This document shows positions 1,707 through 23,834 of a stretch of DNA of 32,000 nucleotides, in pieces (positions within the stretch are counted from its first letter, which is position 1; each line of letters opens with the position of its first letter). The notes below the pieces were generated by a model. The model worked only from the letters and a program-made list of their open reading frames with translations, did not search any database and was not told the DNA's origin. A program made the position numbers and the translations under genes. The stretch spans positions 1 through 32,000 of the forward strand of contig JAQVTI010000009.1 of NCBI GenBank assembly GCA_028700115.1. The letters are read 5' to 3'. The stretch is from Candidatus Iainarchaeum sp. GTDB taxonomy: Archaea > Iainarchaeota > Iainarchaeia > Iainarchaeales > CSSED10-239.

Positions 1707-1779
1707 TTTTGTGCACAAAAAAAAGTAATTTGTGCATTTGAAAGACACATTTAAAAACTTATTCTTTCATATATATAAT

Positions 1780-3042
1780 ATGGAAAAACAATATTTAGAA
1801 CAGATAGTCTTAGATCAAAAAGAAAGGTTATCTAAATTAAAACAAGGATACCTAAGAGATAAACTTTATAATATAGCTGATATAATTAACCACAAAATAA
1901 ATATAGTTGTAACTGGTCATAGAAGAAGTGGTAAATCAACATTTTTATTACAATGGATGAATAAATATTATAATTCTAATTTCTACTATTTAGATTTTTC
2001 AGATGAACGATTAGTTGATTTTAAAACTACTGATTTTCAATTATTATATGAGATATTTTTAGAACATTTTGGAGAAAAGGATATTTTTTATTTTGATGAA
2101 TTGCAAGGAAAAAAATATGATTGGAATAAATTTGTAAATAGATTATATTCAGAAGGTAAAAGATTTTTTATTACAGGATCTAATGCAGATTTATTAAGTA
2201 AAGAAATATCTACTTATTTAACTGGTAGACATTTTGATATAATGTTATTTCCTTTTTCTTTTAAAGAATATTTGGGGTATAATAATTTTAATAAAAATTA
2301 TAAATCAACTACTGGTAAAGTAGAAGTAATAAAATATTTTAATAATTATATTAAACAAGGTGGTTTTCCAGAAGTTATAGTTTATAAAAATATAGATATA
2401 TTGGATAATATTTATCAAGATGTAATAAATAATGATATTTTAACAAGATATAATATAAAAGAAGAAGTTGAATTTAAAAAAATGAGTTTGTTTTTAATAT
2501 CTAATTTTTCAAGAGAGTTTTCATATACTTCTTTAAAAAATAATTTTAATTTAGGTAGCACTCATACAGCTAAAAAATATGTTTCTTATTTAATAAACTC
2601 ATATTTATTATTTGAATTACCAAAATATGATTATTCTTTAAAAAAACAAGAAACTTATGCTAAAAAAATATACGCAATAGATACTGGACTTATAAATAAG
2701 ATTGCTTTTGGTTTTTCTGAAAATATAGGTAGACTGTATGAAAATTTAGTATTTATTGAACTAAAAAGAAGAAATAAAAACATTTATTTTTGGAAAGATA
2801 AACTTGATCATGAAGTTGATTTTATGACTGTAGAAAAAAATAAAGTAATTTCTTTAATTCAAGTAACTTATGATCTAAGTAATTTAAAGACTAAAGAAAG
2901 AGAAATAAAAGGTTTGCTTTCTGGGTTAGATGAATTTAAATTAAAATCAGGAATAATTATAACTAAAGATTTAGAAAAAGAAGAAAAAATAGATGGAAAA
3001 ATAATAAAATATATACCTTTATGGAAATGGTTGTTAGAATAA
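1780..3042 (+). CDS. AAA+ ATPase, AAA_14/DUF4143 family (paralog 1)
   Basis: Walker A-type TGHRRSGKST and Walker B-like IFYFDELQ. ATG at 1780 is preferred over the track start at 1732 because paralog 17885-19144 begins MDKDYLERIILDQ versus MEKQYLEQIVLDQ here. The C-terminal third is nearly identical between the paralogs. Confidence 0.8.
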   Translation: MEKQYLEQIVLDQKERLSKLKQGYLRDKLYNIADIINHKINIVVTGHRRSGKSTFLLQWMNKYYNSNFYYLDFSDERLVDFKTTDFQLLYEIFLEHFGEKDIFYFDELQGKKYDWNKFVNRLYSEGKRFFITGSNADLLSKEISTYLTGRHFDIMLFPFSFKEYLGYNNFNKNYKSTTGKVEVIKYFNNYIKQGGFPEVIVYKNIDILDNIYQDVINNDILTRYNIKEEVEFKKMSLFLISNFSREFSYTSLKNNFNLGSTHTAKKYVSYLINSYLLFELPKYDYSLKKQETYAKKIYAIDTGLINKIAFGFSENIGRLYENLVFIELKRRNKNIYFWKDKLDHEVDFMTVEKNKVISLIQVTYDLSNLKTKEREIKGLLSGLDEFKLKSGIIITKDLEKEEKIDGKIIKYIPLWKWLLE

Positions 3043-3044
3043 TT

Positions 3045-3767
3045 ATGGACTATAATAAAGTATATAAAAATTATATAAAAAAATCAAATGATTTTACTTA
3101 TATATTTGATAAAACATATTTAAAAGAATTTGAAAATTTAAAAAATAAAAATATTTTAGATATTGGTTGTGGAGAAGGTAGATTTGCTTTTACTTGTTCT
3201 AAAAAAGGTGTTAAAATAGATGCTATAGATGTTAGTTCTAAATTAATAGATTTTGCAAAAGAATATAATTATTCAAAAAATATTAATTATTATACTTTAG
3301 ATTTTGGAAATGTTGATATAAATTAATTTAAATCTAAAAAATATGATTTTATTGTAATAAATATGGTTTTATTAAATATTTTTTCTGAAAAAAAGGTAAA
3401 TAATATTTTTGAAAAATGTTATAAATTACTTAATAAGAATGGAATATTTGCATTTTCTGATTTAAATCCTATCTGTAAGGCTTGTAATGAAAGTTATCCT
3501 CATAGAGTAAATATTTTTCCTAAAACTTTTAGTTATTATAAAAAAGGATCTAAATATAGTGCTATATTAAAGTTTAATTTTAAAAAAATAGAGTTTAAAA
3601 ATAAACATTGGAGATTATAAGATTATACTAATTTTTTAGTAAAAAATAATATGTATATTTATAAAATAATTGAACCAATCTATTCTAATACAAATAAAAT
3701 TAATAGTTATTTAAAAAATATAAAATTTCCTGAATTTATAATTTTTTTTTCTAAAAAGTTAAAATAA
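3045..3767 (+). pseudogene. class I SAM-dependent methyltransferase interrupted by two in-frame TAA codons
   Basis: Motif I ILDIGCGEGRF. Track ORFs 3021-3326 and 3363-3620 and the following 3621-3767 are all in one frame. Methyltransferase-like sequence continues across TAA 3324-3326 (..NVDIN*FKSKKYDFIVINMVLL..) and TAA 3618-3620 (..KHWRL*DYTNFLVKNNMYIYKIIEP..PEFIIFFSKKLK*). Confidence 0.6.
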
Positions 3768-4016: not shown

Positions 4017-4511
4017 ATGTTTCCAAATTTGAAAAATAAACATCTAAATGATTCTTTTTTTACTGCAAAAGATATAATTAAATATCTTAAAAAAAATAAA
4101 GTTTATCCTAAGTTTGAAATTCCAAAAGCTGTTATTTTTTGTTATGATAGATCTTTCTTTAATGATTTATTAAAAAAAGAAAAGCTTACTAAGACTAATT
4201 TTTATAATTTATATTTAATTAATAATACAAATAATAAGATAGGTATAATAGGTGGATTTGGAATAGGTGCTCCAAGTGTTGTTAGACTATTTGAAGAATT
4301 AATTGCTTTGGGTATTAAGAAATTTGTAAGTTTTGGAACATCTGGAACTCTTCAAAAAGATATTAATGTTGGAGATTTAGTTATTTGTAATAGAGCTATT
4401 AGAGATGAAGGGGTTTCTCATCATTATATTAAATCTTCAAAATATGCTTTTTCTTCTGATAAACTTTTAAAAAAAGCAAAAAATATATTTGATAAAAAAG
4501 CAAAAAAATAG
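4017..4511 (+). pseudogene. nucleoside phosphorylase (PNP/UDP family), C-terminally truncated
   Basis: GIIGGFGIGAPSVVRLFEELIALGIKKFVSFGTSGTL...VGDLVICNRAIRDEGVSHHY matches the PNP_UDP_1 core. The ORF stops about 30 aa after RDEG, where family members continue for roughly 100 aa or more (length recalled from memory). Confidence 0.5.
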
Positions 4512-4746
4512 AGTATGATTTTGATATCTTTTTTAACAAATTATTAAAAAATAACTAAAATTTAAGGATATATTGTATGAAAATAAGGTTTTTTATATTT
4601 TCCAATAGTTATATTAACTTTTGTTGTTTTTCGGTTTATTTTTTTTTTTTGATAATTTTAAGGTTTTTGAATAGATTTTAACGCTTTTGTTGTAATTTAG
4701 TAAGGTTTATAAACTTATTTAAAATAATATATATTGGAGTAGTTTA

Positions 4747-4878
4747 ATGGAAAAAATTAATCAACAAGTTAGTCAACAAATTAATATAGATAAATTATTT
4801 GTAATTAAAAAATTACCCATAACATCAAAAGAAAAAAATGGGATCTTTGAAGCATGGGTTGAATCCAGTGATTTGTAG
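4747..4878 (+). CDS. candidate precursor peptide of cluster 1 (43 aa)
   Basis: Hand translation gives MEKINQQVSQQINIDKLFVIKKLPITSKEKNGIFEAWVESSDL*. A tggag motif lies 9 nt upstream of the ATG, and the stop lies 6 nt before the PqqD-like gene. Not in the ORF track (too short). Confidence 0.5.
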   Translation: MEKINQQVSQQINIDKLFVIKKLPITSKEKNGIFEAWVESSDL

Positions 4879-4884
4879 ATTTAA

Positions 4885-5136
4885 ATGAAAAAAATTATTT
4901 TTAATAATAGAGAATATTGGTATAGGCAAGAAAAAGAAGATGTTTATATCTTATTTGAAAAAACTAACTATTTTTATCTTGTAAATATGATTATTATTGA
5001 TGTAATAGAGTATTTAGCTAATAATAAAAGTTTATTAGAGATTACAGAAATTATTAATAAAAAATATCATATTAATATAACTGTAGATTTTTTAGTCACA
5101 AAATTAAAAAATATTGAGGGTATTATTAATGAGTAA
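4885..5136 (+). CDS. PqqD-like peptide chaperone (RiPP recognition element)
   Basis: 83 aa. The pattern ..VYILFEKTNYFYLVNMIIIDVIEYLANNKSLLEITEIINKKYHINITVDFLVTKLKNIEGII fits the PqqD strand plus winged-helix layout. Its end overlaps the start of a radical-SAM/SPASM gene. Confidence 0.6.
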   Translation: MKKIIFNNREYWYRQEKEDVYILFEKTNYFYLVNMIIIDVIEYLANNKSLLEITEIINKKYHINITVDFLVTKLKNIEGIINE

Positions 5137-6118
5137 CTATTTTAGAACCCCTTTATTTCCTAGTATTGATCTTAGTACAAAATGTAATCTTAGTTGTATT
5201 CATTGTAGAAATAACAAAAATAAAATAAGTAAAATTCCTTTTAAAAAAGTTATAGAACTATTAGATGAATTTGAATCTTTGGAAGTATTTCATTTAGCTT
5301 TTGCTGGTGGAGAACCATTTTTATTTCCTAAAATTTATGATGTATTAGAATATAGTCAAAAATTAAATGTGCCCAAGGTGACTATCGTAACTAATTGTAC
5401 ATTTATAAATAAAGATAGAATTGATAAATTAGATAATAATAAAATTAGGTTTGCTGTTAGTTTAGATGGACCAAAAGAAATACACAACTTTATTAGAAAT
5501 GCAGATGTATTTGATAAAGTAATAGATAATATTAAATATTTAGTTTCAAAAGGTTTTTTTGTTATGCTAAATTGTACTTTAATGAAATATAATTATAAAT
5601 ATTTCGATGAGATTATCAAAATTGCTAAAAATTTAAAAGTTAATCAAATTAATTTTTCAAAAGTATTTCCTGTACATTCTGAGATTATTAAATTTATGCT
5701 TTCAAAAGAAGAATTAGATGAGTTATATGAAAACTATAGAAAATATTCTGGTGAAGATAGTTTAGTTATATTCTTAGATAAAGGGTATATGGGTTTTCCT
5801 GATGCATATGATTCTGATATTGCATTTTCTATGGGTTGTAGAGCGGGTATTTCTCAAATAAATGTAATGTCGGATGGTTCTGTTGTAGGTTGTAAATTAT
5901 TACCGGATGTTTGTGCTGGAAATATTTATAAAAATACAATTAAAGAAATATGGGATGATAATAATAATTGGAAGTTATTCCGAAATGTTATACAAAATAT
6001 TAATAGTGATACTTGTAAAAAATGTGATTATTTTTATGCTTGTAAAGGTGGATGTAGAGCATTTGCTTATTATATGACTGGAGATATAAATGGTAAGGAT
6101 CCTTTATGTCCACTATAA
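5129..6118 (+). CDS. radical SAM enzyme with SPASM domain (PqqE/MftC-like peptide maturase)
   Basis: CNLSCIHC (CX3CX2C), GGEPFL, and C-terminal GCRAG...VGC...CKKCDYFYACKGGCRAFAY. ATG 5129 with gaggg 8 nt upstream is preferred over the TTG at 5114. Confidence 0.85.
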   Translation: MSNYFRTPLFPSIDLSTKCNLSCIHCRNNKNKISKIPFKKVIELLDEFESLEVFHLAFAGGEPFLFPKIYDVLEYSQKLNVPKVTIVTNCTFINKDRIDKLDNNKIRFAVSLDGPKEIHNFIRNADVFDKVIDNIKYLVSKGFFVMLNCTLMKYNYKYFDEIIKIAKNLKVNQINFSKVFPVHSEIIKFMLSKEELDELYENYRKYSGEDSLVIFLDKGYMGFPDAYDSDIAFSMGCRAGISQINVMSDGSVVGCKLLPDVCAGNIYKNTIKEIWDDNNNWKLFRNVIQNINSDTCKKCDYFYACKGGCRAFAYYMTGDINGKDPLCPL

Positions 6119-7747
6119 ATGATTACTATGAAAACTATTAGTGAGATAATTATAGAATTTATTAAATTTTTAAAAATTGATACTATATTTGGAATTCCTG
6201 GTTCTAATCTAGATTTTTTAAAGTATTTGTCAGAAGATAAAGTAATAAAATTTATTGTAAATAAAGATGAAAAAAATTCGCCTTATATGGCTATGGGGTA
6301 TACTAAATCATCTAATAAAATTAGTTGTTGTTTTGGTAGTGTAGGTGCAGGAGTTTTTAATTTAATTCCTGGCACAATATCTGCTTATTATGAATCTGTT
6401 CCTTTATTAATAATCGGTGGGCAGACTAATTTAAAAAATAAAGGTAAAAATACTTTTCAAGAGGCCTCTGGATGTGCTAGAAGTGTAAGTCAGTTAAATG
6501 AATTTAAAAAAATAACTTTGTACAATTGTATTTTAAATGAAAAAAAATTGTTCCAACAATTAGAAAAAGTATTTTTTAGTTTAAATGATTTTAGATCTGG
6601 TCCGGTATATATTGAATTTCCATCAGAACTTATGAATTTAAAAATTAATTTTAATAAAAAAATATTTTGTAATATGAAAATTAATTTTAATAGATATAGA
6701 TTAGATAAAATTAAATTATATGATGAATCAAAAAAAGTTAATCAATTAATTATTGATTTAAATAAATCTAAAAAACCAGTTATATTAATTGGTAATGGTG
6801 TTAAAGATTCAAAAGAAATTATTAAATTATCATCTAAATTTAGAATTCCTATTTTTTCTACATTTAAAGGAAAAGATAGGGTTACAAATAATTTTAAGTA
6901 TTATATGGGTTGTTTAGGATTAATTGGTAGTTCTATTGGTAATAATTATTTTAAAGAAAGTGATTTGTTAATATCTATTGGATCTAGTTTAAGTCAGTTT
7001 ACTACGGATAATTGGAAATTAATTGATAATAAAAATATTTATAGAATAGACACTATTAATGATGATATAACCAAACATAAGGGGATTGTAATTAAATCAG
7101 ATTATTCTGATGTTTTTAAAAAACTTTTAAGTTCTGATTACAAAGGAAATAATAATATTGTTGAATTAAAACAAAGTATTGATAATGAATTAAATAAATT
7201 TAATAGCCCTAAAATAAATTTAATAAGAAAATTAAGGACTAGTTTATCAAAAGACTCTATAATAGTTACTGAAGATATTTTTTTAATTGGTAAGTATTTT
7301 AAATTTTATAAAAATGATATTAATTTAAATTTTACAAATATTGCTCCTATTGGGTGTGCCTTATCTGGAGGCATAGGGGCTCAAATAGCAAATTCTAAAA
7401 AAAAAGTTATTGTAATTTTGGGGGATGGAGGATTTAACATGAATATTTCTGAATTAAATACAATTATGAATTATAAAATCCCTTTAAAAATTATATTAAT
7501 TAATAATAATGGTTATGGTATAGTGTATAAATCACAAATACATAAATTTAAAAATAATTTTTATACTCAATTTAAAAATCCAGATTATTTTAAATTAAGT
7601 CAATCATACAATTTTACTGCATATAATATAAATAATGTTTTTAAATTATCATTAAAAAAACTTAAAAAAATAATTAATTCAAATAAAACGGAATTAATAA
7701 ATGTAAAAGTAGATATTGACGAAAAAATAGGAATTAAAATATATTAA
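6119..7747 (+). CDS. thiamine-diphosphate-dependent enzyme, acetolactate-synthase-like three-domain architecture
   Basis: N-domain IDTIFGIPGSNLDFL...DEKNSPYMAMGY...VPLLIIGGQ, middle domain KPVILIGNGV, and ThDP-binding GDGGFNMNISELNTIMNYKIPLKIILINNNGYG. Confidence 0.8.
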   Translation: MITMKTISEIIIEFIKFLKIDTIFGIPGSNLDFLKYLSEDKVIKFIVNKDEKNSPYMAMGYTKSSNKISCCFGSVGAGVFNLIPGTISAYYESVPLLIIGGQTNLKNKGKNTFQEASGCARSVSQLNEFKKITLYNCILNEKKLFQQLEKVFFSLNDFRSGPVYIEFPSELMNLKINFNKKIFCNMKINFNRYRLDKIKLYDESKKVNQLIIDLNKSKKPVILIGNGVKDSKEIIKLSSKFRIPIFSTFKGKDRVTNNFKYYMGCLGLIGSSIGNNYFKESDLLISIGSSLSQFTTDNWKLIDNKNIYRIDTINDDITKHKGIVIKSDYSDVFKKLLSSDYKGNNNIVELKQSIDNELNKFNSPKINLIRKLRTSLSKDSIIVTEDIFLIGKYFKFYKNDINLNFTNIAPIGCALSGGIGAQIANSKKKVIVILGDGGFNMNISELNTIMNYKIPLKIILINNNGYGIVYKSQIHKFKNNFYTQFKNPDYFKLSQSYNFTAYNINNVFKLSLKKLKKIINSNKTELINVKVDIDEKIGIKIY

Positions 7748-7759
7748 ATAAGTGATTTT

Positions 7760-8074
7760 ATGAAATATGGTATTGAGTATATAGTTAAAAAAGATTTCTT
7801 AGGTACTATTAAAATTATAAAGAATAGATCTGATTTTAATAAAGTTAATGAAAATGATATTATTTTATTATTAAACACAAGTCCTGATGTTATTTTGTTA
7901 TTTAATAAAATTAAAGGTGTTATTATTGAAATAGGAGGCCAAACATCACATTTAACAATTATTGCAAGAGAGAGTAATATGCCTCTAATTAGATTAAATA
8001 ACGCTAAAGAAATAATTACAGATGGCGATTTTGTAAAAGTAGTTGAGGGTAATATTTATGTTAATGAAAATTGA
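7760..8074 (+). CDS. stand-alone PEP-utilising enzyme mobile (phosphohistidine swivel) domain protein
   Basis: DIILLLNTSPDVILLFNKIKGVIIEIGGQTSHLTIIARESNMPLI...DGDFVKV matches the GGxTSHxxIxARExxxP swivel-domain signature. Confidence 0.8.
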   Translation: MKYGIEYIVKKDFLGTIKIIKNRSDFNKVNENDIILLLNTSPDVILLFNKIKGVIIEIGGQTSHLTIIARESNMPLIRLNNAKEIITDGDFVKVVEGNIYVNEN

Positions 8075-9065
8075 GGTTCTTTGTAAAAAGATAGCTAAAG
8101 ATATATCTATAATACAAAAAGGAGGGGCAATTGAAACTCAGTGGCCTTTTTTAACTTCAGAAGTAGAAAACTATATTGGTGTTGATTTTATCAAACATTT
8201 AAGTAATATATTAGATGAAGCTTTATTAAACAATAATATAACACAAATTGCTACTAAATTGAAATACCCTTCAATGATAACTCAATATATTGCTTTGATT
8301 CATAGTGCAAATGTATTACCTCTTAATAAAAGAATTGAATTAATAACTAATTTAATAAGTATAATAGAAGAATTAAGAATGGACTATTTATGTAATAAAG
8401 GTATTAATATATTGCAAAATTTTGATATTAGTAAATTTTTATCTAATGATATTAAACAAGATATTATTCCTCAAAAGATATCTAGTATTTTATATGCTTA
8501 TACTGAAAAATTATATCCTACTTTAATGCGTTTGTCATTTGAACATCATGGTCCATATATTTTTAATAAAAAAAAATATGTTGTAAAAGAATATTTTAAT
8601 CTTAAAAATCAATATTCAAATATGTTTCCTGTTTTTAACTATGATAATGTTAAAATAATTCAAGAAATAGAAGGAGATTTTAATGTTGATTTTTTTGGGC
8701 ATTCAATAGGAGATTATAAAATAGTTAATTCGATTTTAGTTGTAGATAATGAAATAATTAGTGACACAAATAAATTTTTAGAAGAAATATTAATTAATTT
8801 TATTAATTTAGATAAGTTATTTTTAGAATATACTGTTGAAGATTATGCTAAAAATTTAACAAATGGATTGTTTTATTCTTTAAAACCATTAACTACTTTA
8901 ATTAATAAAGATTGGGTTCCATCTAAAAATATAATTGCTAAATTAAATGGGTTTAAATTATTTTTTCCTAGAGATAAAATTATTAATTATATAAAGTCTA
9001 CAGATATAAATGAAATAGAATTTAAAGTGTACTTAAGTTTTAAAAATATTTTTATTAAAGATTAA
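8058..9065 (+). CDS. unknown-family protein, conserved partner of the swivel-domain protein (paralog of 22952-23833)
   Basis: Overlaps the previous gene. By-eye homology to the cluster 2 protein: CKKIAKDISIIQKGGAIETQWPF vs CNKISKDMFYLCISGSTIHNWPL, and DFFGHSIGDYKI vs SFFGHIFKVEEI. No motif I recognise. Confidence 0.6.
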   Translation: MLMKIEVLCKKIAKDISIIQKGGAIETQWPFLTSEVENYIGVDFIKHLSNILDEALLNNNITQIATKLKYPSMITQYIALIHSANVLPLNKRIELITNLISIIEELRMDYLCNKGINILQNFDISKFLSNDIKQDIIPQKISSILYAYTEKLYPTLMRLSFEHHGPYIFNKKKYVVKEYFNLKNQYSNMFPVFNYDNVKIIQEIEGDFNVDFFGHSIGDYKIVNSILVVDNEIISDTNKFLEEILINFINLDKLFLEYTVEDYAKNLTNGLFYSLKPLTTLINKDWVPSKNIIAKLNGFKLFFPRDKIINYIKSTDINEIEFKVYLSFKNIFIKD

Positions 9066-9067
9066 TT

Positions 9068-9916
9068 ATGAAATATGAAATTCATTTTAATTATAAATGT
9101 AATCAAAATTGTATTTTTTGTAGTGTATTACAACATCCTCAAAGAGATCTAGAATTAAGTGATTTAGATCTAATTTTACCTTTTATTCATAATAATCAAA
9201 TTGTTCAAATTAGTGGAGGAGAGCCTTTATTAAATACAAATTTGATTAAATGGGTAAAAGAAATTAAAAAAAAAACTAGATTTATTTCTTTAACTACTAA
9301 TGGCACTTTATTAAATAAAGATAATTTAAATGAATTAATTAATTTAGGTGTAAATTGTTTTATTATTTCATTACATAGTAATACTATTAATAATTTTAAG
9401 AAAATAACTACAACTGATAACTTTAATAATGTAATAAATTGTTTAGAATTATTTAAAAAAATAAATAATAGTAGCATAAAAGTAATAGTTAATACCGTTA
9501 TTACAAAATATAATATTTCTGAAATTTTCGATTTATTTAAAATGTTACATGAAAAATATGGTTTTGCTAAAATAAAATTATCTTATCCTAGATTTTATAA
9601 ATTTGCAAAATCTGATTTTAATTGTAAAATTCATTTATTGTCATTAACAGATGTTCATTTCTTTTTAAAAGATATAATTAATAAACCTTATTTTGATAAA
9701 CTTATTATAGAAAATATTCCTTCATGTATAATTAAACCTAGTAAAGAATATAGAGACTGGTCTACTAAACTTTTAACAGTAGATGGAATAAAAGATAGTG
9801 TAGATAACACGAGATATTATATGAAAAAATGTGTTACTTGTAATTTAAGATTAAATTGTCAAGGATTTCACAAATATTATAATTATTATTTTGACGATTA
9901 TATTTTGGAAACATAA
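9068..9916 (+). CDS. radical SAM enzyme (second, 282 aa)
   Basis: CNQNCIFC (CX3CX2C), SGGEPLL, and C-terminal Cys cluster CVTCNLRLNC. Confidence 0.75.
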   Translation: MKYEIHFNYKCNQNCIFCSVLQHPQRDLELSDLDLILPFIHNNQIVQISGGEPLLNTNLIKWVKEIKKKTRFISLTTNGTLLNKDNLNELINLGVNCFIISLHSNTINNFKKITTTDNFNNVINCLELFKKINNSSIKVIVNTVITKYNISEIFDLFKMLHEKYGFAKIKLSYPRFYKFAKSDFNCKIHLLSLTDVHFFLKDIINKPYFDKLIIENIPSCIIKPSKEYRDWSTKLLTVDGIKDSVDNTRYYMKKCVTCNLRLNCQGFHKYYNYYFDDYILET

Positions 9917-9968
9917 TTGTTTAGATAGATTTATTAATTTGTAATTATATATATTTATAGTGTTGTAT

Positions 9969-10688
9969 ATGTTTAAAGGAAATATTTCAACTAATTTAAA
10001 ATTTACAAATAAATTAGATAGATTAAAAAAAGAAACTATAGCTTCTAAAAAAATTACTTTTGCAAGTTATCCAAAAAAAGAAGTTGCAATTAAGTATGTT
10101 GATGCTTTTTGGAAAAGATATTTTGATGGAAGCTTAGAAAAATCTTTATCTAAAAGAAAAGATAACCATTTTATTTCTAATTATAATCCAAATGTAAAAA
10201 TTTTTCCTATTTCTCCTACAGTTTCTGTAACTGTAAGAAAAATGAATTTAATAGATGTAAGACCTTATTTCGAAATTCATAAATATTATAAAGAAAAATT
10301 TAAAAATGCAAATTTTAAATATTCTAAATTTGTTTTAACAGATATAATAGATTATAAGAAAAAAGGGGATTTTTATTATGTTCTTGAAAGAATAGTTCCT
10401 TCTATTAGTGTATATGATTTTTATGTGTCAGATTTTAAGGGTTTTAAAGAAAATAGATTTTCTAAATCTTTTCAGAAAAGTTTAGAAAAAGTGGATTTAT
10501 TAAAGATGAAAGAAGATTTAGGTCCAGCATTAAATGAATTAAAACATTTTATTAATAATAATTCTAAATTTAAATTTAGACTTGATAATTCTAATAATAA
10601 TATTATTATAATTGATTATAATCCAGAAACACATAAATTTAAATTTGGATTAATTGATTTTGCTGGTATGAGTTCTAAAAGTTTTTAA
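9969..10688 (+). CDS. putative atypical protein-kinase-fold protein
   Basis: EVAIKYV (VAIK-type beta3 lysine), LDNSNNN (DxxxxN catalytic loop) and LIDFAG (DFG-like). All assigned by eye, and the motif spacing is compatible with a small RIO/Bud32-size kinase. Confidence 0.35.
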   Translation: MFKGNISTNLKFTNKLDRLKKETIASKKITFASYPKKEVAIKYVDAFWKRYFDGSLEKSLSKRKDNHFISNYNPNVKIFPISPTVSVTVRKMNLIDVRPYFEIHKYYKEKFKNANFKYSKFVLTDIIDYKKKGDFYYVLERIVPSISVYDFYVSDFKGFKENRFSKSFQKSLEKVDLLKMKEDLGPALNELKHFINNNSKFKFRLDNSNNNIIIIDYNPETHKFKFGLIDFAGMSSKSF

Positions 10689-10792
10689 AAATAATACTAT
10701 TTTTTAAGTTTTTTTTTCTTATTTTGCAAACATCTATTTATAAATTTATTGTTACTTGTATATTTATACAACTAATAATTAGGTGAATATTT

Positions 10793-11947
10793 ATGAATTA
10801 CAAAAATTTTAATCCTTTACTTTTTTTAATGTCTTTAGGTGCTGGGGGTATTTCAATTATTCCTTTTGCGTTTTTACAATATACTTTTTTTAGTTCAAAA
10901 GGACTTGTTACTTTATCTGATGTATTAAGTTCAAGTTTAAGTATGTCTCAATTAGTTTTATTTAATTTTTTATTTATAGTTATGATTGTTTTTGGATTAC
11001 TTCATTTAATTTTAAGTGTTATATTAATAAAACATTTAATTAAATGGATAAAAGAAGGAAGATATAAAGAAATGTTAAATAATCCTTTAAAAAACTCTGC
11101 TCTTTTAGCTCCATTTATTTCTATTATAATGACTTTAAATGTATTTATTGGTCCTATTAGATTTTTTATAAACCCTATTTCAAATAATCTTCAAAGTTTA
11201 ATGATTTATGCATTAATCTTTTGGGGTTTAATATGGTTATTTTTAATGTATTTAGATTTAAAGTTAATATCTATATCTTTTTTAAAAGATTTTGATGTTT
11301 CTAAAATAAATTTCGGATGGCTTTTACATTCTTTTGCATTAGGTATGGCTTCTGTAACTGGTTCTGGAATTGCAGCTTTATCTCAAAATATTTTAATTGC
11401 ACACATTGCTGCATTCTTATCAACAATTTCTTTAAGTTTAGGTTTATTTTTATTAATAGTAAAACTAATAACTTTATTTAAATTCCATTTTGAATCAAAA
11501 GGATTACCTGATAAGCAATTTTTACCTAGTTTTTTAATAGTTATTCCAAATGTAACTTTATTTGCAATAACTTTATTTAGATTAGGTCATTATTTAGAAC
11601 ATGCTTTTTCATTTTCATTAGGAGCTTATTTTTTAGTAGTTATTCTTTTAAGCTTTGTATTTGAAATCTGGTATTTTGGTTTTTCTTTATTTTTACTTAA
11701 AGATTATTTTAAAAAACACTTTTTTAAAAAAGAATTCTATATATCTCAATGGGGGCTTGTTTGTCCAGTTGTAGCTTTTGCTGTTTTGGGTAGTTTTTTA
11801 TATAAAGTATTTGTTCCTAATATAATATTATATATTGTAATAATAGTAGTTTTAATTATTTCAGTTGTTTTGTTTTTTATACTTTTTATAAGACAATTAA
11901 AATGTAGTAATTTTTTAAAAAGTAAAAGTTTTATATGTAAGAATTAG
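10793..11947 (+). CDS. multi-pass membrane protein, possibly TDT/TehA-SLAC1-type transporter
   Basis: About 10 hydrophobic segments. Weak resemblance to TehA-family segments (LPSFLIVIPNVTLFA; SQWGLVCPVVAFAVLG). It is the last gene of the low-GC island. Confidence 0.45.
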   Translation: MNYKNFNPLLFLMSLGAGGISIIPFAFLQYTFFSSKGLVTLSDVLSSSLSMSQLVLFNFLFIVMIVFGLLHLILSVILIKHLIKWIKEGRYKEMLNNPLKNSALLAPFISIIMTLNVFIGPIRFFINPISNNLQSLMIYALIFWGLIWLFLMYLDLKLISISFLKDFDVSKINFGWLLHSFALGMASVTGSGIAALSQNILIAHIAAFLSTISLSLGLFLLIVKLITLFKFHFESKGLPDKQFLPSFLIVIPNVTLFAITLFRLGHYLEHAFSFSLGAYFLVVILLSFVFEIWYFGFSLFLLKDYFKKHFFKKEFYISQWGLVCPVVAFAVLGSFLYKVFVPNIILYIVIIVVLIISVVLFFILFIRQLKCSNFLKSKSFICKN

Positions 11948-14325: not shown

Positions 14326-15747
14326 TTATTTCTTCTTTGTGAAAAATTCAATAGCAACTTCTAGTTCTTTATGTGTTTTTGCATATTCTTCAATTGAAAT
14401 TCCTTTTTTATATGCCTCACATGCCTGAACTAAAGCCATTGCTCCTTCTTTTGTACCATTTGGATGAGCATGACAACCTGCACCCATAGTTGTAATAAAG
14501 TCAACTCCACCCATAACATCAATAAATGGTTTTAATAAAGTAGGGTTAAGTCCTCCTGAAACAATAGGTGTACATTTTTTTACACCTCTCCATTCATCTT
14601 CATCTAAGATAGCTTTGTGTGCATGATCTTTTTCTACATTTTCAATAAAATCTAAATCTTTTTCAGATATTTTACCCCAAGATTGATCAAAGAAAAATCC
14701 TTTTCCATATAAATCTAATATGTTTTTAGCAGCAGTGATGTCTGATTTAGGAGTTCCATCCATTTTTCCAACTCCAGCAGTTCCTGTATGTATCCCAGAA
14801 GCTCCTGCAAGTCTTGCAAATTTAGATAAAACTAAAACTGAAAATCCAAAATCATTTTCTGGTCTTGTAAAAGCACCGTGAGCTGCTCTATGGAAATGTA
14901 TAAAAACATCAGGATATCTTCTTCTTAGAGTTTGAACAGCCATCCATCCTGCAGTAATCCCATCTATTAAAAATGCATATGAACCTTTTTCAAATCCTGC
15001 ATTTTCAATCATTTCACATCTTTTAATCATTGTGTCAAAATCTGCAGCTGAAACATTAAAAGAGTGTACTTTTTTCTTTCCAGTCTCTTTTACTGCCTTT
15101 TCCATTGCGTTTTTTACATGTTTTACCATTTTATCGTATGGACAGAAGTCTTGGTCTGCTTGAGGCTCATCGTTTTTAACAAAGTCTCCTCCACCAACCC
15201 AGAAGTCATAACAAACTTCTGCATATTCTGCTGAAGTTAGTCCCATTTTTGGCTTTACAATTGTTCCTAGAATAGGTCTATTATAAACATCTAAGTATTT
15301 TCTCATATCATCAATTGTGTATGATGGTCCATCAAATTGTTCTAGCATAGAAGGAGGAAACCATAAGTCTAAAAGTTTAAGAGCAGAAACTTCTTTCATA
15401 CCTAAAACATTTCCTACAATGTAAGTTAGTATATTTTGTACATTTCCAACTCTATCAAAAAGTCTCCATGGATATGCAATCCATACAAGTTCTTTTTCTT
15501 GATCTAAGTCATAAACTAAAGCATTCATTTCTCTTGAGAATGCAGTTTCTGTTTGTACTTTAAAATTAGTCCCAGTTGAAGACTCAGCTGCAATTTCTGC
15601 TGCTGCTTGTAAGACATTTAGTCCTTTACCTTCTTTCATTCTAAAAACACAAAGAAGATATTCTCCATTTTTTGTGTTTGGTATATTAAAATTAACATAG
15701 GCTTTTTGTTTTTCATTTAAAGTTTCATATAATTCATTTTTATTCAT
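14326..15747 (-). CDS. rbcL: ribulose-1,5-bisphosphate carboxylase/oxygenase large subunit, form II/III-type
   Basis: AAESSTGTN, GTIVKPKMGL, CYDFWVGGGDFVKNDEPQ, HFHRAAHGA, ARLAGASGIHTGTAGVGKM, TPIVSGGLN. The core is form II-like, with an extra roughly 27-aa segment (KISEKDLDFIENVEKDHAHKAILDEDEWRGVKKC) before TPIVSGG. Confidence 0.9.
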   Translation of the reverse strand: MNKNELYETLNEKQKAYVNFNIPNTKNGEYLLCVFRMKEGKGLNVLQAAAEIAAESSTGTNFKVQTETAFSREMNALVYDLDQEKELVWIAYPWRLFDRVGNVQNILTYIVGNVLGMKEVSALKLLDLWFPPSMLEQFDGPSYTIDDMRKYLDVYNRPILGTIVKPKMGLTSAEYAEVCYDFWVGGGDFVKNDEPQADQDFCPYDKMVKHVKNAMEKAVKETGKKKVHSFNVSAADFDTMIKRCEMIENAGFEKGSYAFLIDGITAGWMAVQTLRRRYPDVFIHFHRAAHGAFTRPENDFGFSVLVLSKFARLAGASGIHTGTAGVGKMDGTPKSDITAAKNILDLYGKGFFFDQSWGKISEKDLDFIENVEKDHAHKAILDEDEWRGVKKCTPIVSGGLNPTLLKPFIDVMGGVDFITTMGAGCHAHPNGTKEGAMALVQACEAYKKGISIEEYAKTHKELEVAIEFFTKKK

Positions 15748-17884: not shown

Positions 17885-19144
17885 ATGGATAAAGATTATT
17901 TAGAAAGAATAATTTTAGATCAGTCTGAAGATCTTAAACAAATAGATTTAGGTTTACCTAGAGATAAACTTTTAGATTTAGATACTCAAATTAAATCAAA
18001 AATAAATATAATAATTACAGGTGTTAGGCGTTGTGGTAAATCTACTTTATTATTACAAATAATGAATAAATATTATAAAAATAAATTTTATTATTTAAGA
18101 TTTGCAGATGAAAGACTTTCAGATATAAAAATAGATGATTATCAAAAAATATATGAAATATTTCAATCAAATTTTAATATGAATAATATATTTTTTTTTG
18201 ATGAAATACAAGGTAAACCTAATTGGGATAAATTTGTTAATAGATTGTATGAAACTGGAAATAAATTTTATATAACTGGATCAAATTCAGAATTATTAAG
18301 TAAAGAAATATCTACTTATCTTACAGGAAGACATTTAGATGTTGAATTATATCCTTTTTCTTTTAAAGAATATTTAAATTTTAAAAAGATTAATTTAGAT
18401 TATAGATATTCAAAAAATTTAATAAAAATAGAAAAAGAACTAAATAACTATATAAAAATAGGTGGTTTTCCACAAGTTGTTGTTGAAAATAATTTAGTAT
18501 TACTTGAAGAAATATATGAAGATATAATTAATAAAGATATTTTATTAAGATATAATTTAAATGATGTAGCTATTTTTAAAAAAATAGCATTATTTTTAAT
18601 ATCAAATATATCAAAAGAATTTTCATATAATTCTATTAAGAAAATGTACGATATAGGTAATTCTGATACTGTTAGAAATTATGTTTATTATCTTAAAAAT
18701 GCTTATTTATTATTTGAATTACCTAAATATGACTATTCTTTGAAAAAACAAGAAAGTTATTCTAAAAAGATTTATGCTATAGATACTGGTTTAATAAATA
18801 AGTTGGCTTTTTCTTTTTCTGAGAATATAGGTCGGCTTTATGAAAATTTAGTTTTTATAGAATTAAAAAGAAGAAATAAAAGGATATATTTTTGGAAAGA
18901 TAAATCTAATTATGAAATAGATTTTATAATTTTAGAAAAAAATAAAGTGACTTCTTTAATACAAGTTGTATATGATTTAAGTGATTTAAAAACAAAAGAA
19001 AGAGAAATAAGAGGCTTAATTTCTGGTTTAAAAGAATTTAAGCTTAAAGAAGGTATAATAATTACAAAAGATTTAGACAAAAAAGAAAAAATAGATAATT
19101 TAACTATAAAATATATACCTTTATGGAAATGGTTATTAGAATAA
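17885..19144 (+). CDS. AAA+ ATPase, AAA_14/DUF4143 family (paralog 2)
   Basis: TGVRRCGKST Walker A. Same length and end (KYIPLWKWLLE) as 1780-3042. Confidence 0.8.
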   Translation: MDKDYLERIILDQSEDLKQIDLGLPRDKLLDLDTQIKSKINIIITGVRRCGKSTLLLQIMNKYYKNKFYYLRFADERLSDIKIDDYQKIYEIFQSNFNMNNIFFFDEIQGKPNWDKFVNRLYETGNKFYITGSNSELLSKEISTYLTGRHLDVELYPFSFKEYLNFKKINLDYRYSKNLIKIEKELNNYIKIGGFPQVVVENNLVLLEEIYEDIINKDILLRYNLNDVAIFKKIALFLISNISKEFSYNSIKKMYDIGNSDTVRNYVYYLKNAYLLFELPKYDYSLKKQESYSKKIYAIDTGLINKLAFSFSENIGRLYENLVFIELKRRNKRIYFWKDKSNYEIDFIILEKNKVTSLIQVVYDLSDLKTKEREIRGLISGLKEFKLKEGIIITKDLDKKEKIDNLTIKYIPLWKWLLE

Positions 19145-21255: not shown

Positions 21256-22185
21256 TTATTGTTGTTTATTATAAACTTTAACTATTTTTTTATAAAATTT
21301 ACACATTTCCATAAATTGATTAGGATTTGTCTTTTCTAAAAATTTGCACCCTCCTTTACAGTAATTCCATATTTCGCAATTTTTATTTAAACATATATTA
21401 ATATTATTTATTTTTTTTAGATTATATTTTTTATACATTGTTAATAAATGACATCTATCATAACTACCATCTGGAAATATTCCATAAGTTGTATTTTCAT
21501 AATAACCACAAAATTTATTTTTATTTAATTTATTATCTAAATAATTAAAAAAATAATTTGAAAATGGGGATATTTTTATATTTTTTTTATGAAGTGAAAG
21601 TATGTATTCTATATCTTTAATAGTTATTCTTTTTATAGAATTTATATTGGAAAAATTAAATCCTATGTAATTTGGATTTAATTTTAATAAATTAATTATA
21701 TTCTTTTTAAAATTAATTTTTGTAGATATTGTGGATGATATTTGTAATTGTATCCCTCCTTTTTTAATTAATTTAGCATTTGTTATAAGTTTTTTTATAT
21801 TGGTTGATCTATTTTTTAAATTAGTTTCAATAGGGTCAATACTTATAGTTATATTTTTAATACCCCAATTTTTAAGTTTTTTAATTGTATTTTTGTTAAT
21901 TAAAGTTCCATTTGTAATTATATTAAAATTGTAAATACCTAGTAATTTTAATCTTATTATAATTTTTTTAATGTTTTTTAAGTCTAATAAAGGTTCTCCA
22001 CCATAAAAAATAATTGTAGAATCCGATCTATATTTTTTTGGAACTAATAAGTTAATAGAATTTATAATATTATTTATGTCAAATGCATTTTTTTTATTTA
22101 ATAAATTAATTTTTTTTAAATAACAATATTTACAATTTAAGTTACAATTATATGTAGTTATTATAAATAATTTATATTTTTTCAT
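21256..22185 (-). CDS. radical SAM enzyme with SPASM/twitch-type C-terminus (cluster 2, distal)
   Basis: CNLNCKYC (CX3CX2C), YGGEPLL, and C-terminal CLNKNCEIWNYCKGGCKF. Confidence 0.8.
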   Translation of the reverse strand: MKKYKLFIITTYNCNLNCKYCYLKKINLLNKKNAFDINNIINSINLLVPKKYRSDSTIIFYGGEPLLDLKNIKKIIIRLKLLGIYNFNIITNGTLINKNTIKKLKNWGIKNITISIDPIETNLKNRSTNIKKLITNAKLIKKGGIQLQISSTISTKINFKKNIINLLKLNPNYIGFNFSNINSIKRITIKDIEYILSLHKKNIKISPFSNYFFNYLDNKLNKNKFCGYYENTTYGIFPDGSYDRCHLLTMYKKYNLKKINNINICLNKNCEIWNYCKGGCKFLEKTNPNQFMEMCKFYKKIVKVYNKQQ

Positions 22186-22619
22186 AATTCTTCTAAAATA
22201 TTAATGGTTTTTTCTAAATTATAATTTATAAATAAATTATCTCTTTTATTTTTATAATTTTTTATTAATTTATTTATATTATCGTTAATTAATATTGGAT
22301 CACAATTTAGAAATAATAATTTTTTACAGTTATTATAAAAATATGTGGTTAACAATAAATTATCTAGTATGTTATAATTTATTTTAACAAAAGTATTTAC
22401 CGATAAAGGATAAATTAAAATTAAATTTGGTTTTGGAATTGAATTAATATTACTCCATTCTATTTTTCTATTTTTTAAAAATTTGAATTTATTTAAATTA
22501 AATAAATTATATGAATTATTTGAAATACAATAATATACTTTATTTTTTTTAAGGATATTGTTAATTTTATCTAAATTCAATATATTTTGACCAGCACAAA
22601 CTAAAACATATATAATCAT
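22182..22619 (-). CDS. HFCD-type flavoprotein-like protein (LanD/EpiD/CoaC family), short form
   Basis: MIIYVLVCAGQN (Rossmann start) and YPLSVNTFVKINYNILDNLLLTT, compared with the family signature PASANT..K.A.G..DNLLT recalled from EpiD/Dfp. 145 aa, shorter than typical members. Confidence 0.5.
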   Translation of the reverse strand: MIIYVLVCAGQNILNLDKINNILKKNKVYYCISNNSYNLFNLNKFKFLKNRKIEWSNINSIPKPNLILIYPLSVNTFVKINYNILDNLLLTTYFYNNCKKLLFLNCDPILINDNINKLIKNYKNKRDNLFINYNLEKTINILEEL

Positions 22620-23833: not shown

Positions 23834-23834
23834 G

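Follow-up and report, generated by a model that had tools for sequence, protein, structure and literature searches.

A candidate RRE-dependent radical-SAM peptide-maturation operon with ThDP-enzyme and phosphohistidine-swivel genes in DPANN archaea

What might be made by a run of genes that opens with a 43-codon ORF, continues with two radical-SAM enzymes and a ThDP-dependent enzyme, and includes a phosphohistidine swivel domain beside a protein of no described family? We analyzed the locus within a 32-kb window, the whole stretch of DNA examined, from a very small, symbiotic archaeon of the DPANN group, and suggest, with somewhat better than even confidence and from sequence comparison, that positions 4747-9916 form one operon belonging to a family, new to the literature, of peptide-maturation clusters that use an RRE and radical-SAM enzymes, so far found in DPANN archaea. 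An earlier note had called it a RiPP-like operon of unrecognized type, and that description stands: all NCBIfam RiPP and cofactor equivalogs score far below cutoff, and a full-text literature search found no description of such a cluster. The gene combination is absent from described peptide natural-product or cofactor pathways.

Gene order and boundaries

Reading of the sequence gives seven tightly packed genes on the + strand (Table 1), with overlaps or gaps of at most 12 nt, exactly as the earlier note had claimed. The peptide and RRE genes are separated by 6 nt, and the RRE gene stop is overlapped by 8 nt by ATG 5129, where the radical-SAM/SPASM gene begins. The TAA of the latter (6116-6118) directly abuts ATG 6119 of the ThDP gene, a 12-nt gap precedes the swivel gene, ATG 8058 of the X gene sits 17 nt within the swivel gene, and ATG 9068 of the second radical-SAM gene comes just after the X-gene stop at 9065. 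The N-termini of orthologues favor ATG 5129 and ATG 8058 over upstream TTGs. A TATA-like box (TTTATAAA) lies about 40 nt, and GGAG 8 nt, 5´ of the peptide ATG, and the upstream region is likely to hold the operon promoter and translation start signals.

Table 1. Features at the locus, with positions in the window
Feature	Position	Strand	Length (aa)	Basis
Upstream intergenic region	4512..4746	+		Likely promoter and translation start signals, read from sequence
Precursor peptide, MEKINQQVSQQINIDKLFVIKKLPITSKEKNGIFEAWVESSDL	4747..4878	+	43	Orthologous ORFs at the same position
Stand-alone PqqD-type RRE	4885..5136	+	83	Orthologue matches to PF05402
Radical-SAM/SPASM peptide maturase	5129..6118	+	329	Pfam Radical_SAM 78 bits, SPASM 35.5 bits
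ThDP-dependent enzyme, acetolactate-synthase/pyruvate-oxidase superfamily	6119..7747	+	542	Three TPP domains
Stand-alone phosphohistidine swivel domain (PEP-utilizers mobile domain)	7760..8074	+	104	PF00391 50.7 bits
X domain	8058..9065	+	335	Unannotated family; swivel linkage; PPDK_N-swivel-X fusion
Second radical-SAM enzyme, HxsC/MoaA/viperin-like	9068..9916	+	282	Radical_SAM 73.7 bits
Hypothetical protein	9960..10688	+	242	Neighbor, no conserved cluster membership
TsoY-family (SLAC1/TehA-type) membrane transporter	10793..11947	+		NF047643 317.7 bits (cutoff 250)

The cluster had originally been drawn to 11947. Its conserved unit ends at 9916, because neither of the next two genes adjoins any other copy. 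The multi-pass transporter had been correctly recognized. The hypothetical protein (239 aa, 9969-10688, in the public gene call) had been labeled kinase-like, a label left unsupported by Pfam, NCBIfam and PDB profile searches, which gave no family or PDB match; the resemblance is limited to a D-x4-N…ID[FL] motif. Five homologues share 46-51% identity with it; P0166 and P0167, the pair examined for context, lie in unrelated neighborhoods, and the gene was not found at any other cluster locus. The TsoY gene product also matches the SLAC1-type transporter family in Pfam. This gene, absent beside every other copy of the cluster, is probably a separate transcription unit; the 104-nt gap upstream of it contains a TATA-like box as well as an oligo-T run. 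Among the loci compared, the cluster has no conserved protease, exporter or immunity gene. Elsewhere in the same window, a second radical-SAM peptide cluster also has a swivel gene.

The precursor, the RRE and the radical-SAM/SPASM enzyme

The short ORF is kept at all loci where its position is sequenced, with orthologues at the same position in L004, L014, L026, L011, L010, L012/13, L016, L019 and L027. The encoded peptide has no Cys, and carries an invariant P-x-[ST]…[KR]-I-x-E-x-W-x-E motif followed by a variable acidic tail. Changes between close pairs are mostly synonymous: over a 17-codon core, the window and L011 differ by nine synonymous and no nonsynonymous codons, and L004 and L014 by seven and none. 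Because the core is invariant and the codon differences are mainly synonymous, we judge the ORF to be real, translated and under clear purifying selection, in keeping with the place given to it in the earlier note.

The 83-aa protein had been proposed to be an RRE. The window copy is itself sub-threshold, with no Pfam match and a best NCBIfam match, to PqqD_rel_WgkC, at E 0.051 only, but it can be assigned because its orthologues match PqqD: five of nine hit PF05402 (best E 1.9e-4), with the L004 protein at E 0.0023 and at E 0.001 to the NCBIfam WgkC-PqqD model. In the PDB, the family profile matches best two RREs of lasso-peptide systems, TfuB1 and TbiB1 (E about 0.3). The position of the gene is constant, between the peptide gene and the radical-SAM/SPASM gene.

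The radical-SAM/SPASM enzyme is borne out by both Pfam domains. Its CX3CX2C motif spans residues 19-26, its SPASM domain is complete with seven Cys, all cluster-binding Cys residues are invariant across seven orthologues, and no RRE is fused to it. Among 5.8e9 proteins, only six relatives share 50-71% identity with it, the next match being at 30%, and it scores below every NCBIfam cutoff.

The mycofactocin (MftA/B/C) and PQQ (PqqA/D/E) pathways open with the same trio of short conserved precursor, stand-alone PqqD-type RRE and SPASM radical-SAM enzyme. There, too, the SPASM enzyme has two auxiliary clusters, and enzymes of small-molecule type are encoded after the trio. The window enzyme aligns end to end with the MftC and PqqE models, but at 107.8 bits against a cutoff of 265 and 89.6 bits against a cutoff of 381, respectively. 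In contrast to MftA and PqqA, the peptide has neither a C-terminal Gly-Val-Tyr nor E-x3-Y, but E-x-W-x-E and the acidic tail; MftD/E/F and PqqB/C/F are all absent, and the cluster, unlike either pathway, has a ThDP enzyme, a second radical-SAM enzyme and a swivel/X phosphotransferase. Streptide StrB, WgkB, WprB, darobactin DarE and the "triceptide" enzymes are likewise RRE-assisted SPASM enzymes, acting on a Trp that is conserved within a short motif, and W-x-E conforms to the aromatic-X-X pattern seen in three-residue cyclophanes. The top NCBIfam matches include WgkB (111 bits, cutoff 650) and WgkC, its partner of PqqD type. The window peptide differs in having no Lys/Arg partner motif (KxxxW, WGK), and, in the literature retrieved, the Trp-cross-linking pathways have no ThDP or phosphohistidine enzyme.

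The ThDP enzyme, the second radical-SAM enzyme and the swivel/X pair

The gene described earlier as an acetolactate-synthase-like TPP enzyme indeed has all three Pfam domains (TPP_enzyme_N, _M and _C at 87, 78 and 93 bits), and is present at 12 of 13 related loci. Its closest solved relative is BbmA (PDB 8x3x, E 1e-44), and it shares with the acetolactate synthase/pyruvate oxidase superfamily the three-domain architecture, the catalytic Glu and the GDG…NN ThDP-Mg motif, visible here as GDGGF…NN. Unlike acetolactate synthase, it falls below every equivalog cutoff (244 bits to TIGR00118, cutoff 538), is encoded inside a peptide-maturation operon, and has neither a small regulatory subunit nor branched-chain amino-acid genes nearby.

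The second radical-SAM enzyme, whose assignment Pfam upholds, has no SPASM domain and ends in a C-terminal CxxCx5C motif; its gene is found upstream or downstream of the core, also at 12 of 13 related loci. A SPASM and a non-SPASM radical-SAM enzyme beside a short peptide also occur in the His-Xaa-Ser system (HxsB/HxsC/HxsD; TIGR03976-03979). HxsC is the best full-length NCBIfam match of the L004 protein (90 bits), and the window protein covers positions 34-290 of the 292 in that model (65 bits), its top-scoring matches being MoaA models. Both scores are below the HxsC cutoff of 268, the HxsB score (66 bits) is below its own cutoff of 370, and the peptide lacks His-Xaa-Ser repeats. To our knowledge, and by the NCBIfam descriptions, the Hxs system is itself uncharacterized and has no ThDP or swivel genes.

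The swivel protein keeps the phospho-His motif T-S-H (GGQTSH, GGQTSHLTIIARE) shared by PEP synthase, pyruvate phosphate dikinase, rifampicin phosphotransferase and phenylphosphate synthase. At the loci inspected, all but L017, its gene is directly upstream of the X gene wherever this could be read, including the distant L023-L025. The X domain has no Pfam, NCBIfam or PDB sequence match, and its AF2 model (pLDDT 96.2, pTM 0.93) has no Foldseek match in PDB or BFVD; it differs from both the PEP-utilizers_C TIM barrel and the rifampicin-binding domain. HMMER gave 167 representatives, from DPANN and from one or more CPR lineages, with conserved W29-P30, P71, N117, E162-x-H-G-P-Y167 and D211. One member is an X + HAD fusion (P0062) and another (P0068) joins PPDK_N, swivel and X, ordered as the domains of PEP synthase are. 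Because a swivel gene precedes X wherever this could be read and P0068 fuses all three parts, we infer that X would be the substrate-binding, phosphoryl-acceptor domain of a PEP-synthase/RPH-like enzyme. The 335-aa protein thus matches no family, as had been noted, but is not unrelated to its neighbor, being the third domain of a PEP-utilizing-type enzyme in P0068.

A PPDK_N gene adjoins swivel/X in L002, L004-8, L014 and L022, and this ATP-grasp partner scores 336 bits to the PEP synthase N-terminus. Split subunits are known in phenylphosphate synthase. The window, like most other loci, has no PPDK_N ATP-grasp gene, so the "split PEP-utilizing module" of the earlier note comprises here the swivel and a new domain only. 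In some DPANN and CPR genomes (L002, L023-L025), swivel and X stand as a pair by themselves, surrounded by housekeeping genes, and the X family is therefore not intrinsically peptide-directed.

Distribution, alternative readings and proposed function

The gene set recurs at about 12 distinct loci; those labeled by taxon are all DPANN archaeal, except for one mislabeled contig. The arrangement is co-linear in the window, L004, L014, L010, L011 and L026, and split into two divergent operons in L016, L018, L019 and L027. Identity to the window falls in parallel across the radical-SAM/SPASM, TPP, X and second radical-SAM proteins, at 67, 54, 45 and 37% for L004 and 35, 41, 36 and 35% for L016. Different lineages thus share co-inherited cluster genes, whose order varies. 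The swivel/X, ThDP and second radical-SAM modules are not obligatory, since L026 is without swivel and X, and L022 without the ThDP and second radical-SAM enzymes. The earlier note had thought that peptide-less homologous operons of a known small-molecule pathway might speak against a peptide system. All homologous operons with the radical-SAM or ThDP genes have the peptide gene, and none of them is part of a known pathway; only the swivel + X pair stands alone.

By the logic of PQQ and mycofactocin, the peptide could be a scaffold only. An unlinked protease would excise a Trp/Glu-derived fragment after E-x-W-x-E cross-linking, and the ThDP enzyme, an SDR at some loci, and the dikinase-like phosphotransferase would finish a diffusible metabolite or redox cofactor. 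The accessory enzymes do come from small-molecule families, the SPASM enzyme aligns at full length to the models of mycofactocin (108 bits) and PqqE (90 bits), and each locus has just one precursor copy. A region of 17-20 residues is nearly all conserved though SPASM enzymes share only 31-37% identity, a whole-region conservation as in PqqA and MftA, whereas antimicrobial RiPP cores are hypervariable. Exporter and immunity genes are not conserved, and neighbors can be housekeeping genes, such as EF-2 (L014), SerRS (L016) and the proteasome (L019). Yet about a dozen loci among billions of proteins is a rarity unexpected for a needed cofactor, neither a peptidase nor a candidate cofactor-dependent enzyme is linked, and the MftC and PqqE cutoffs are missed widely. 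We regard this outcome as possible, if on balance doubtful.

It is unlikely that two unrelated systems, a minimal RiPP trio (peptide, RRE and SPASM enzyme) and an independent small-molecule operon (ThDP, swivel, X and second radical-SAM) with a substrate other than the peptide, merely adjoin. The divergent operons do separate these halves, the swivel + X pair can be peptide-less, and an accessory module is missing from L026 and from L022. However, the halves are adjacent at all of the about 12 loci, in at least four DPANN lineages, despite rearrangement; their identities decay in parallel; they are translationally coupled in the window; and orthologues of the ThDP and second radical-SAM enzymes were never met without the trio among the loci examined. 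Least probable is a system with no peptide at all, in which the SPASM enzyme would be of AhbD/NirJ type, serving a tetrapyrrole or other cofactor, and the short ORF and 83-aa protein would be bystanders. Although heme b synthase AhbD (128.8 bits) and NirJ2 are the best NCBIfam matches of the SPASM enzyme, and the window RRE scores below threshold, AhbD and NirJ reach about a quarter of the respective cutoffs (500), and the RiPP maturases WgkB, MftC, PapB and PqqE score nearly the same. Purifying selection on the peptide, the recurrent PqqD signal in orthologues and the absence of tetrapyrrole genes nearby also argue against it.

The operon most likely modifies a small ribosomal peptide, and we infer each chemical step from family membership. 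The RRE would bind the conserved N-terminal region of the peptide ([LF]-[YF]-[IV]-x-x-[LF]-P-x-[ST]) and present it to the SPASM enzyme, which could abstract hydrogen to form a carbon-carbon (or carbon-oxygen) cross-link inside the invariant E-x-W-x-E. The Trp ring might be bonded to a flanking Glu side chain, comparable to the Glu-Tyr link of PqqE or the aromatic-x-X link of a three-residue cyclophane. The second radical-SAM enzyme may carry out a further radical step. An ATP-grasp PPDK_N partner (adjacent in L004, L014 and L022, fused in P0068, and here presumably outside the window) would phosphorylate the swivel His, and the swivel would pass the phosphoryl group to the X domain, which could phosphorylate or activate an oxygen of the peptide itself or of an intermediate derived from it, with the invariant Ser/Thr or a carboxylate as candidate acceptor. 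The ThDP enzyme, for whose action on a ribosomal peptide we found no precedent in the literature, may add or remove a 2-oxoacid-derived carbon unit. The end product of these DPANN clusters would be a heavily tailored peptide or peptide fragment.

Extent and recurrence of the cluster

Seven plus-strand genes at 4747-9916, in a window with a G+C content of about 20%, are packed as the earlier note had described them, and the layout it gave proved exact when the window sequence was re-read (see the table of features). The starts ATG 5129 and ATG 8058 are favoured over upstream TTGs by orthologue N-termini and by an independent public gene call. The peptide ATG is preceded by a GGAG at a distance of 8 nt and by a TTTATAAA box at about 40 nt, and, as read from the sequence, these may be the start signals for the cluster. 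Rfam and tRNA scans of the window returned no match, to a TPP riboswitch or otherwise.

Features of the cluster, its downstream neighbours and the second cluster, by window position
Feature	Coordinates	Strand	Remarks
Peptide, 43-aa ORF	4747-4878	+	followed by a 6-nt gap
Candidate RRE, 83-aa ORF	4885-5136	+	stop overlapped 8 nt by ATG 5129
SPASM enzyme gene	5129-6118	+	TAA 6116-6118 abuts ATG 6119
ThDP gene	6119-7747	+	12-nt gap before 7760
Swivel gene	7760-8074	+	ATG 8058 of the X gene lies 17 nt inside it
X gene (335-aa protein)	8058-9065	+	stop 9065, next ATG 9068
rSAM2 gene	9068-9916	+	end of conserved unit
242-aa gene	9960-10688		
TsoY-family gene	10793-11947		oligo-T run and TATA-like box upstream
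rSAM enzyme, second cluster	21256-22185	-	
Flavoprotein-like gene	22182-22619	-	
PEP-utilizers swivel, second cluster	22616-22948	-	PF00391, 33 bits
314-aa unknown protein	22952-23896	-	WP and DISFFGH motifs that recall the 335-aa family
SAM methyltransferase, second cluster	23835-24401	-	
rSAM/SPASM enzyme, second cluster	24391-25536	-	
48-aa ORF	25545-25691	-	ends …HGADEYVDGY

Six proteins are 50-71% identical to the SPASM enzyme, and no other exceeds 30%. Each window protein served as a tblastn query against the contigs of the relatives, nine loci from GTDB genomes and two from metagenomes, and this screen of the fetched loci (L-numbers) turned up about 12 distinct versions of the cluster. 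Co-linear copies occur in the window and at L004, L014, L010, L011, L012/13 and L026; at L016, L018, L019 and L027 the genes form two divergent operons, ThDP-swivel-X-rSAM2 and peptide-RRE-SPASM. A degraded copy is found in a Pacearchaeota MAG (L020, 5881-10314), with the ThDP gene in five frame-shifted pieces and X and rSAM2 in two each. Labelled hosts are Iainarchaeota-like, Pacearchaeota, Micrarchaeota and uncultured archaea. L019 (CAZBZG010000295.1) is binned as 'uncultured Planctomycetaceae bacterium', but archaeal proteasome alpha and SBDS-like genes adjoin the cluster, so that the contig almost certainly comes from a DPANN archaeon and was mis-binned. A metagenome scan with the SPASM alignment recovered true relatives at 2 of the 80 loci kept, the others encoding generic SPASM enzymes that are at most 31% identical.

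Identities to the window proteins fall in parallel (rSAM/SPASM, ThDP, X and rSAM2: 67, 54, 45 and 37% at L004; 35, 41, 36 and 35% at L016), which argues that the set has been inherited as a unit. Its accessory modules are nonetheless separable. At L026 the ThDP gene leads directly to rSAM2, with no swivel or X, and L022 (5919-13701), a more distant variant, combines PPDK_N, a swivel, a distant X, an AMP-binding ligase and two glycosyltransferases with neither a ThDP enzyme nor rSAM2, its divergent arm coding for an rSAM/SPASM enzyme, a protein of 81 aa that is clearly PqqD-like and a candidate peptide of 49 aa. At L004, L012 and L013 the cluster includes an SDR gene, and a PPDK_N ATP-grasp gene is part of it at L004-8 and L014.

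Neither the 242-aa gene nor the TsoY gene stands beside any other cluster copy in the tblastn screen of the fetched loci; the conserved unit therefore runs from 4747 to 9916, and not to 11947 as first proposed. The description of the 242-aa gene as 'kinase-like' is unsupported: neither the protein by itself nor a profile built from 6 sequences has a Pfam, NCBIfam or PDB match, and a conserved D-x4-N … I-D motif is the sole kinase-like trait seen. Five homologues share 46-51% identity with it, and the two with fetched context lie in unrelated neighbourhoods; AAA_14/DUF4143 genes adjoin its homologues at L107 and L108. The possibility that it replaces PPDK_N was rejected, given no BLASTP similarity, no profile match and the unrelated neighbourhoods of its homologues. 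The TsoY gene (NCBIfam NF047643, 317.7 against a cutoff of 250) is of the SLAC1/TehA type, and its ORF is uninterrupted despite passing the 'selenoprotein TsoY' equivalog cutoff.

Directly 5´ of the cluster lies a PNP_UDP_1 (nucleoside phosphorylase/nucleosidase) ORF (4017-4511), which looks truncated, its match spanning only positions 45-133 of the 233 in the profile. Members of the superfamily are able to remove 5´-deoxyadenosine, a radical-SAM by-product. Further upstream, adjacent ORFs of 101 and 85 aa (3021-3326 and 3363-3620), the former with a weak TehB-like Pfam match, seemingly represent one split SAM-dependent methyltransferase, and 3021-3620 may be a pseudogene or contain a sequencing frameshift. 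Flanking the clusters are genes for a Fic/DOC protein, two ATPases of the AAA_14/DUF4143 type and the large subunit of RuBisCO, at 656-1597, 1732-3042, 17885-19144 and 14326-15747. Proteins identical to the 335-aa protein and to the SPASM enzyme are named 'MAG: Candidatus ainarchaeum sp.' by NCBI, a DPANN archaeon, and the RuBisCO and AAA_14/DUF4143 genes, together with SerRS, a DEAD-box helicase and DUF134 elsewhere in the window, are compatible with such a source.

The peptide and the radical-SAM enzymes

The 43-codon ORF proposed as a precursor is a real, conserved gene. Orthologues were found at 10 or more loci (see the table of peptides), and codon differences in the 17-codon core between close pairs are exclusively synonymous (9 synonymous and 0 nonsynonymous for the window against L011; 7 and 0 for L004 against L014). 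Aligned orthologues share the invariant residues P-x-[ST]…[KR]-I-x-E-x-W-x-E, followed by an acidic tail of varying length. The precursors at L012 (1884-2018) and L013 (1773-1919) are identical except for one GDDD repeat in this tail, the length of which is thus unconstrained. The window peptide, which has no Pfam match, ends …EAWVESSDL, and two F and one W are all the aromatic residues it contains. No Cys is present in it or in the confidently assigned orthologues; one occurs in the candidate ORF 5´ of the RRE at L022, an uncertain assignment that ends …FCREMWGEGST and so again contains E-x-W-x-E. No peptide-like ORF was found at L002, which has swivel and X only.

Precursor peptides of the window and homologous loci (C-terminal part alone where an entry is truncated)
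Locus	Sequence
Window	…KLFVIKKLPITSKEKNGIFEAWVESSDL
L026	…ELFTIKKLPITSKEKKGIFEAWIESSDL
L004 / L014	…KQFSI[QH]RLPITAREKKGIFEAWAESSDL
L011	…KLYIKSLPITSKEKNGIFEAWVENNDI
L010	…KLYIKDLPITDNSKSRIYEAWIESDDSDDEIIEINK
L012 / L013	…KLYIRGLPITENTKSRIFEAWAESDDGDDD…
L016 / L019	METNE[KR]YEEPEIAKFPVSGEEGKIAEFW[IV]ESD
L027	…EIAKFPKSGEDKKIAEFWVEGPD

The 83-aa protein had been called a PqqD-like RRE. Of 9 orthologues, 5 match PF05402 (best E 1.9e-4; none reaches the gathering score of 23.4 bits). The window copy has no Pfam match, reaches only E 0.051 against the NCBIfam model PqqD_rel_WgkC and is not convincing by itself. The L004 orthologue gives E 0.0023 for PF05402, 0.001 for WgkC-PqqD and 0.16 for lasso-PqqD, and a nine-sequence profile searched against the PDB placed the lasso-peptide RREs TfuB1 and TbiB1 as top and third matches (E ~0.3). 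The gene also has a fixed place between the peptide gene and that of a SPASM enzyme with no N-terminal RRE of its own, which suits an RRE role. On these sequence comparisons, the protein is likely an RRE.

Both radical-SAM assignments were borne out. The first enzyme has CX3CX2C at residues 19-26 and a seven-Cys SPASM domain, with Pfam matches above cutoffs and the Cys set invariant in 7 orthologues; the second, rSAM2, is a radical-SAM enzyme without SPASM according to Pfam, nearest to MoaA, HxsC and viperin and below their cutoffs. The SPASM enzyme can be aligned over its whole length to many NCBIfam maturase models, in each case with only part of the score that the cutoff demands (bits/cutoff: AhbD 129/500, WgkB 111/650, MftC 108/265, PapB 97/340, PqqE 90/381), and its closest solved structures are anSME and PqqE.

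A peptide-RRE-SPASM trio is of a known kind. The earlier note could name no RiPP class that the additional genes match, and the comparison of scores and precursor motifs agrees for mycofactocin, PQQ, His-Xaa-Ser, sactipeptide/ranthipeptide and WGK systems. For mycofactocin, TIGR03962 scores 107.8 against 265, the peptide does not end in Gly-Val-Tyr, and the window has no MftD/E/F genes. For PQQ, TIGR02109 scores 89.6 against 381, the peptide has E-x-W-x-E rather than the E-x3-Y of PqqA, and PqqB/C genes are absent from the window. The Cys-free peptide differs from those of sactipeptides and ranthipeptides, as do the scores (PapB 97/340, AlbA 68/850, StsB 80/625). In the His-Xaa-Ser comparison, HxsC scores 65.4 in the window and 90.3 at L004 against 267.9, HxsB 66 against 370, and the window peptide lacks the H-x-S repeat. 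Scores and precursor motifs also fall outside the WGK family.

The ThDP enzyme, the swivel and the X domain

The ThDP enzyme was correctly recognised, with all three TPP domains, a catalytic Glu and a GDGGF…NN motif. It shares these domains with acetolactate synthase at the superfamily level, whereas its scores lie below all equivalog cutoffs for that enzyme (TIGR00118, 244.1 against 538; TIGR02418, 162.7 against 551); its best solved relative was deposited as BbmA (8x3x, E 1e-44). The swivel is, as had been proposed, a stand-alone PEP-utilizers domain (PF00391, 50.7 bits) with a GGQTSH phospho-His motif. This phospho-acceptor His is common to PEP synthase, PPDK and rifampicin phosphotransferase, whereas the cluster has no PEP-utilizers_C TIM barrel or rifampicin-binding third domain, and the 32-kb window no PPDK_N (tblastn with the L004 protein, best E 3.7). 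L010, L011, L016 and L027 have no PPDK_N in their sequenced flanks either, and the simplest guess is that a PPDK_N gene elsewhere in such genomes charges the swivel His.

The 335-aa protein, X, has no match by sequence in Pfam, NCBIfam or the PDB and, in 5.8 billion proteins, forms no more than three clusters at 90% identity. Exhaustive HMMER searching of 1.84 billion representatives found a family of 167 relatives, mostly stand-alone and of 340-380 aa. Three of ten representatives looked up carry a source annotation, each 'hypothetical protein' or 'uncharacterized protein', and one of these three is from Candidatus Kuenenbacteria, a CPR lineage. No viral contig encoding the domain was found. 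One family member, P0068 (796 aa), is a PPDK_N + PEP-utilizers + X fusion, and another, P0062, fuses X to a HAD phosphatase; the swivel gene lies directly 5´ of X in every readable locus, including the distant L023-L025 (L017 left out), and a PPDK_N gene adjoins at L002, L004-8, L014 and L022. The fusions and adjacencies thus place X where enzymes of the PEP-synthase/rifampicin-phosphotransferase type have their third, substrate domain.

AlphaFold modelled X with confidence from 60 family members (pLDDT 96.2, pTM 0.93), compared with a pLDDT of 52.6 from 3 sequences. The predicted fold comprises an N-terminal helical bundle, a four-stranded antiparallel sheet and C-terminal helices, and Foldseek matched it to no solved structure. 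Conserved residues are W29-P30, P71, N117, E162-x-H-G-P-Y167 and D211.

Swivel + X pairs also occur in other settings. In Candidatus Kuenenbacteria (L023/L024, 6553-10115), CPR bacteria, the neighbours of the pair are an unknown protein of 374 aa and one of 333 aa that bears a second swivel domain at its C terminus, and an archaeal pair at L025 (7709-9071) lies amid housekeeping genes; no radical-SAM or peptide genes are nearby in either case. On its minus strand (25691-21256) the window contains another radical-SAM peptide cluster, the 314-aa protein of which shares WP and D-x-FFGH motifs with the X family; the relationship is weak, with an hhalign probability of only 25% and no HMMER match. 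If this kinship is real, swivel/X modules would be a recurrent tailoring device in this organism.

In a full-text literature search, no paper connected ThDP enzymes or phosphohistidine swivel domains with RiPPs, and none described radical-SAM RiPPs from DPANN archaea. The cluster is unprecedented in its accessory chemistry and includes an uncharacterised, structurally unmatched domain.

Possible product and significance

We suggest the following course of maturation. The RRE would bind the conserved N-terminal half of the peptide, and the SPASM enzyme would form a radical cross-link inside E-x-W-x-E, in which W-x-E suits the aromatic-X-X pattern of three-residue cyclophanes and E-x-W resembles the Glu-Tyr coupling by PqqE. 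rSAM2 may contribute another radical step. An ATP-grasp/swivel/X relay would phosphorylate or activate an oxygen, with the invariant Ser/Thr, a Glu or Asp carboxylate or an intermediate as candidate acceptors, and a 2-oxoacid-derived unit could be gained or lost via the ThDP enzyme.

The product may be a tailored peptide, or it may be a small molecule excised from the peptide by a logic like that of PQQ and mycofactocin. Nearly complete conservation of the peptide across distant clades, a single precursor copy and accessory enzymes of small-molecule type point to the latter, whereas the rarity of the cluster and the lack of a linked protease speak against it. In its fullest form, which we consider speculative and rather unlikely, the small-molecule reading would have a radical cross-link on the E-x-W-x-E scaffold, followed by phosphoryl activation through a phosphohistidine relay with an acceptor of new fold and by ThDP carbon-carbon chemistry, an unprecedented route to a new peptide-derived molecule, possibly a Trp/Glu-based cofactor or signalling metabolite. 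If true, this would add a further member, specific to genome-reduced DPANN archaea, to the very small PQQ/mycofactocin class, and would be the first case of a ThDP enzyme and of a dikinase-type enzyme in the maturation of a ribosomal peptide. The invariant E-x-W-x-E core offers a precise substrate that can be tested by reconstitution in vitro.

The genomes of DPANN archaea are very small, and little secondary metabolism is expected of these organisms. This host nonetheless spends about 5 kb, and a second related cluster, on an elaborate form of peptide maturation that is conserved in several DPANN lineages. Provided that the peptide is the substrate of the co-inherited enzymes, RiPP chemistry would gain two classes not reported there, a ThDP carboligase/decarboxylase and a phosphohistidine-swivel 'dikinase', and the unannotated family of 167 representatives, found in DPANN archaea and at least one CPR lineage, would have its first functional handle.
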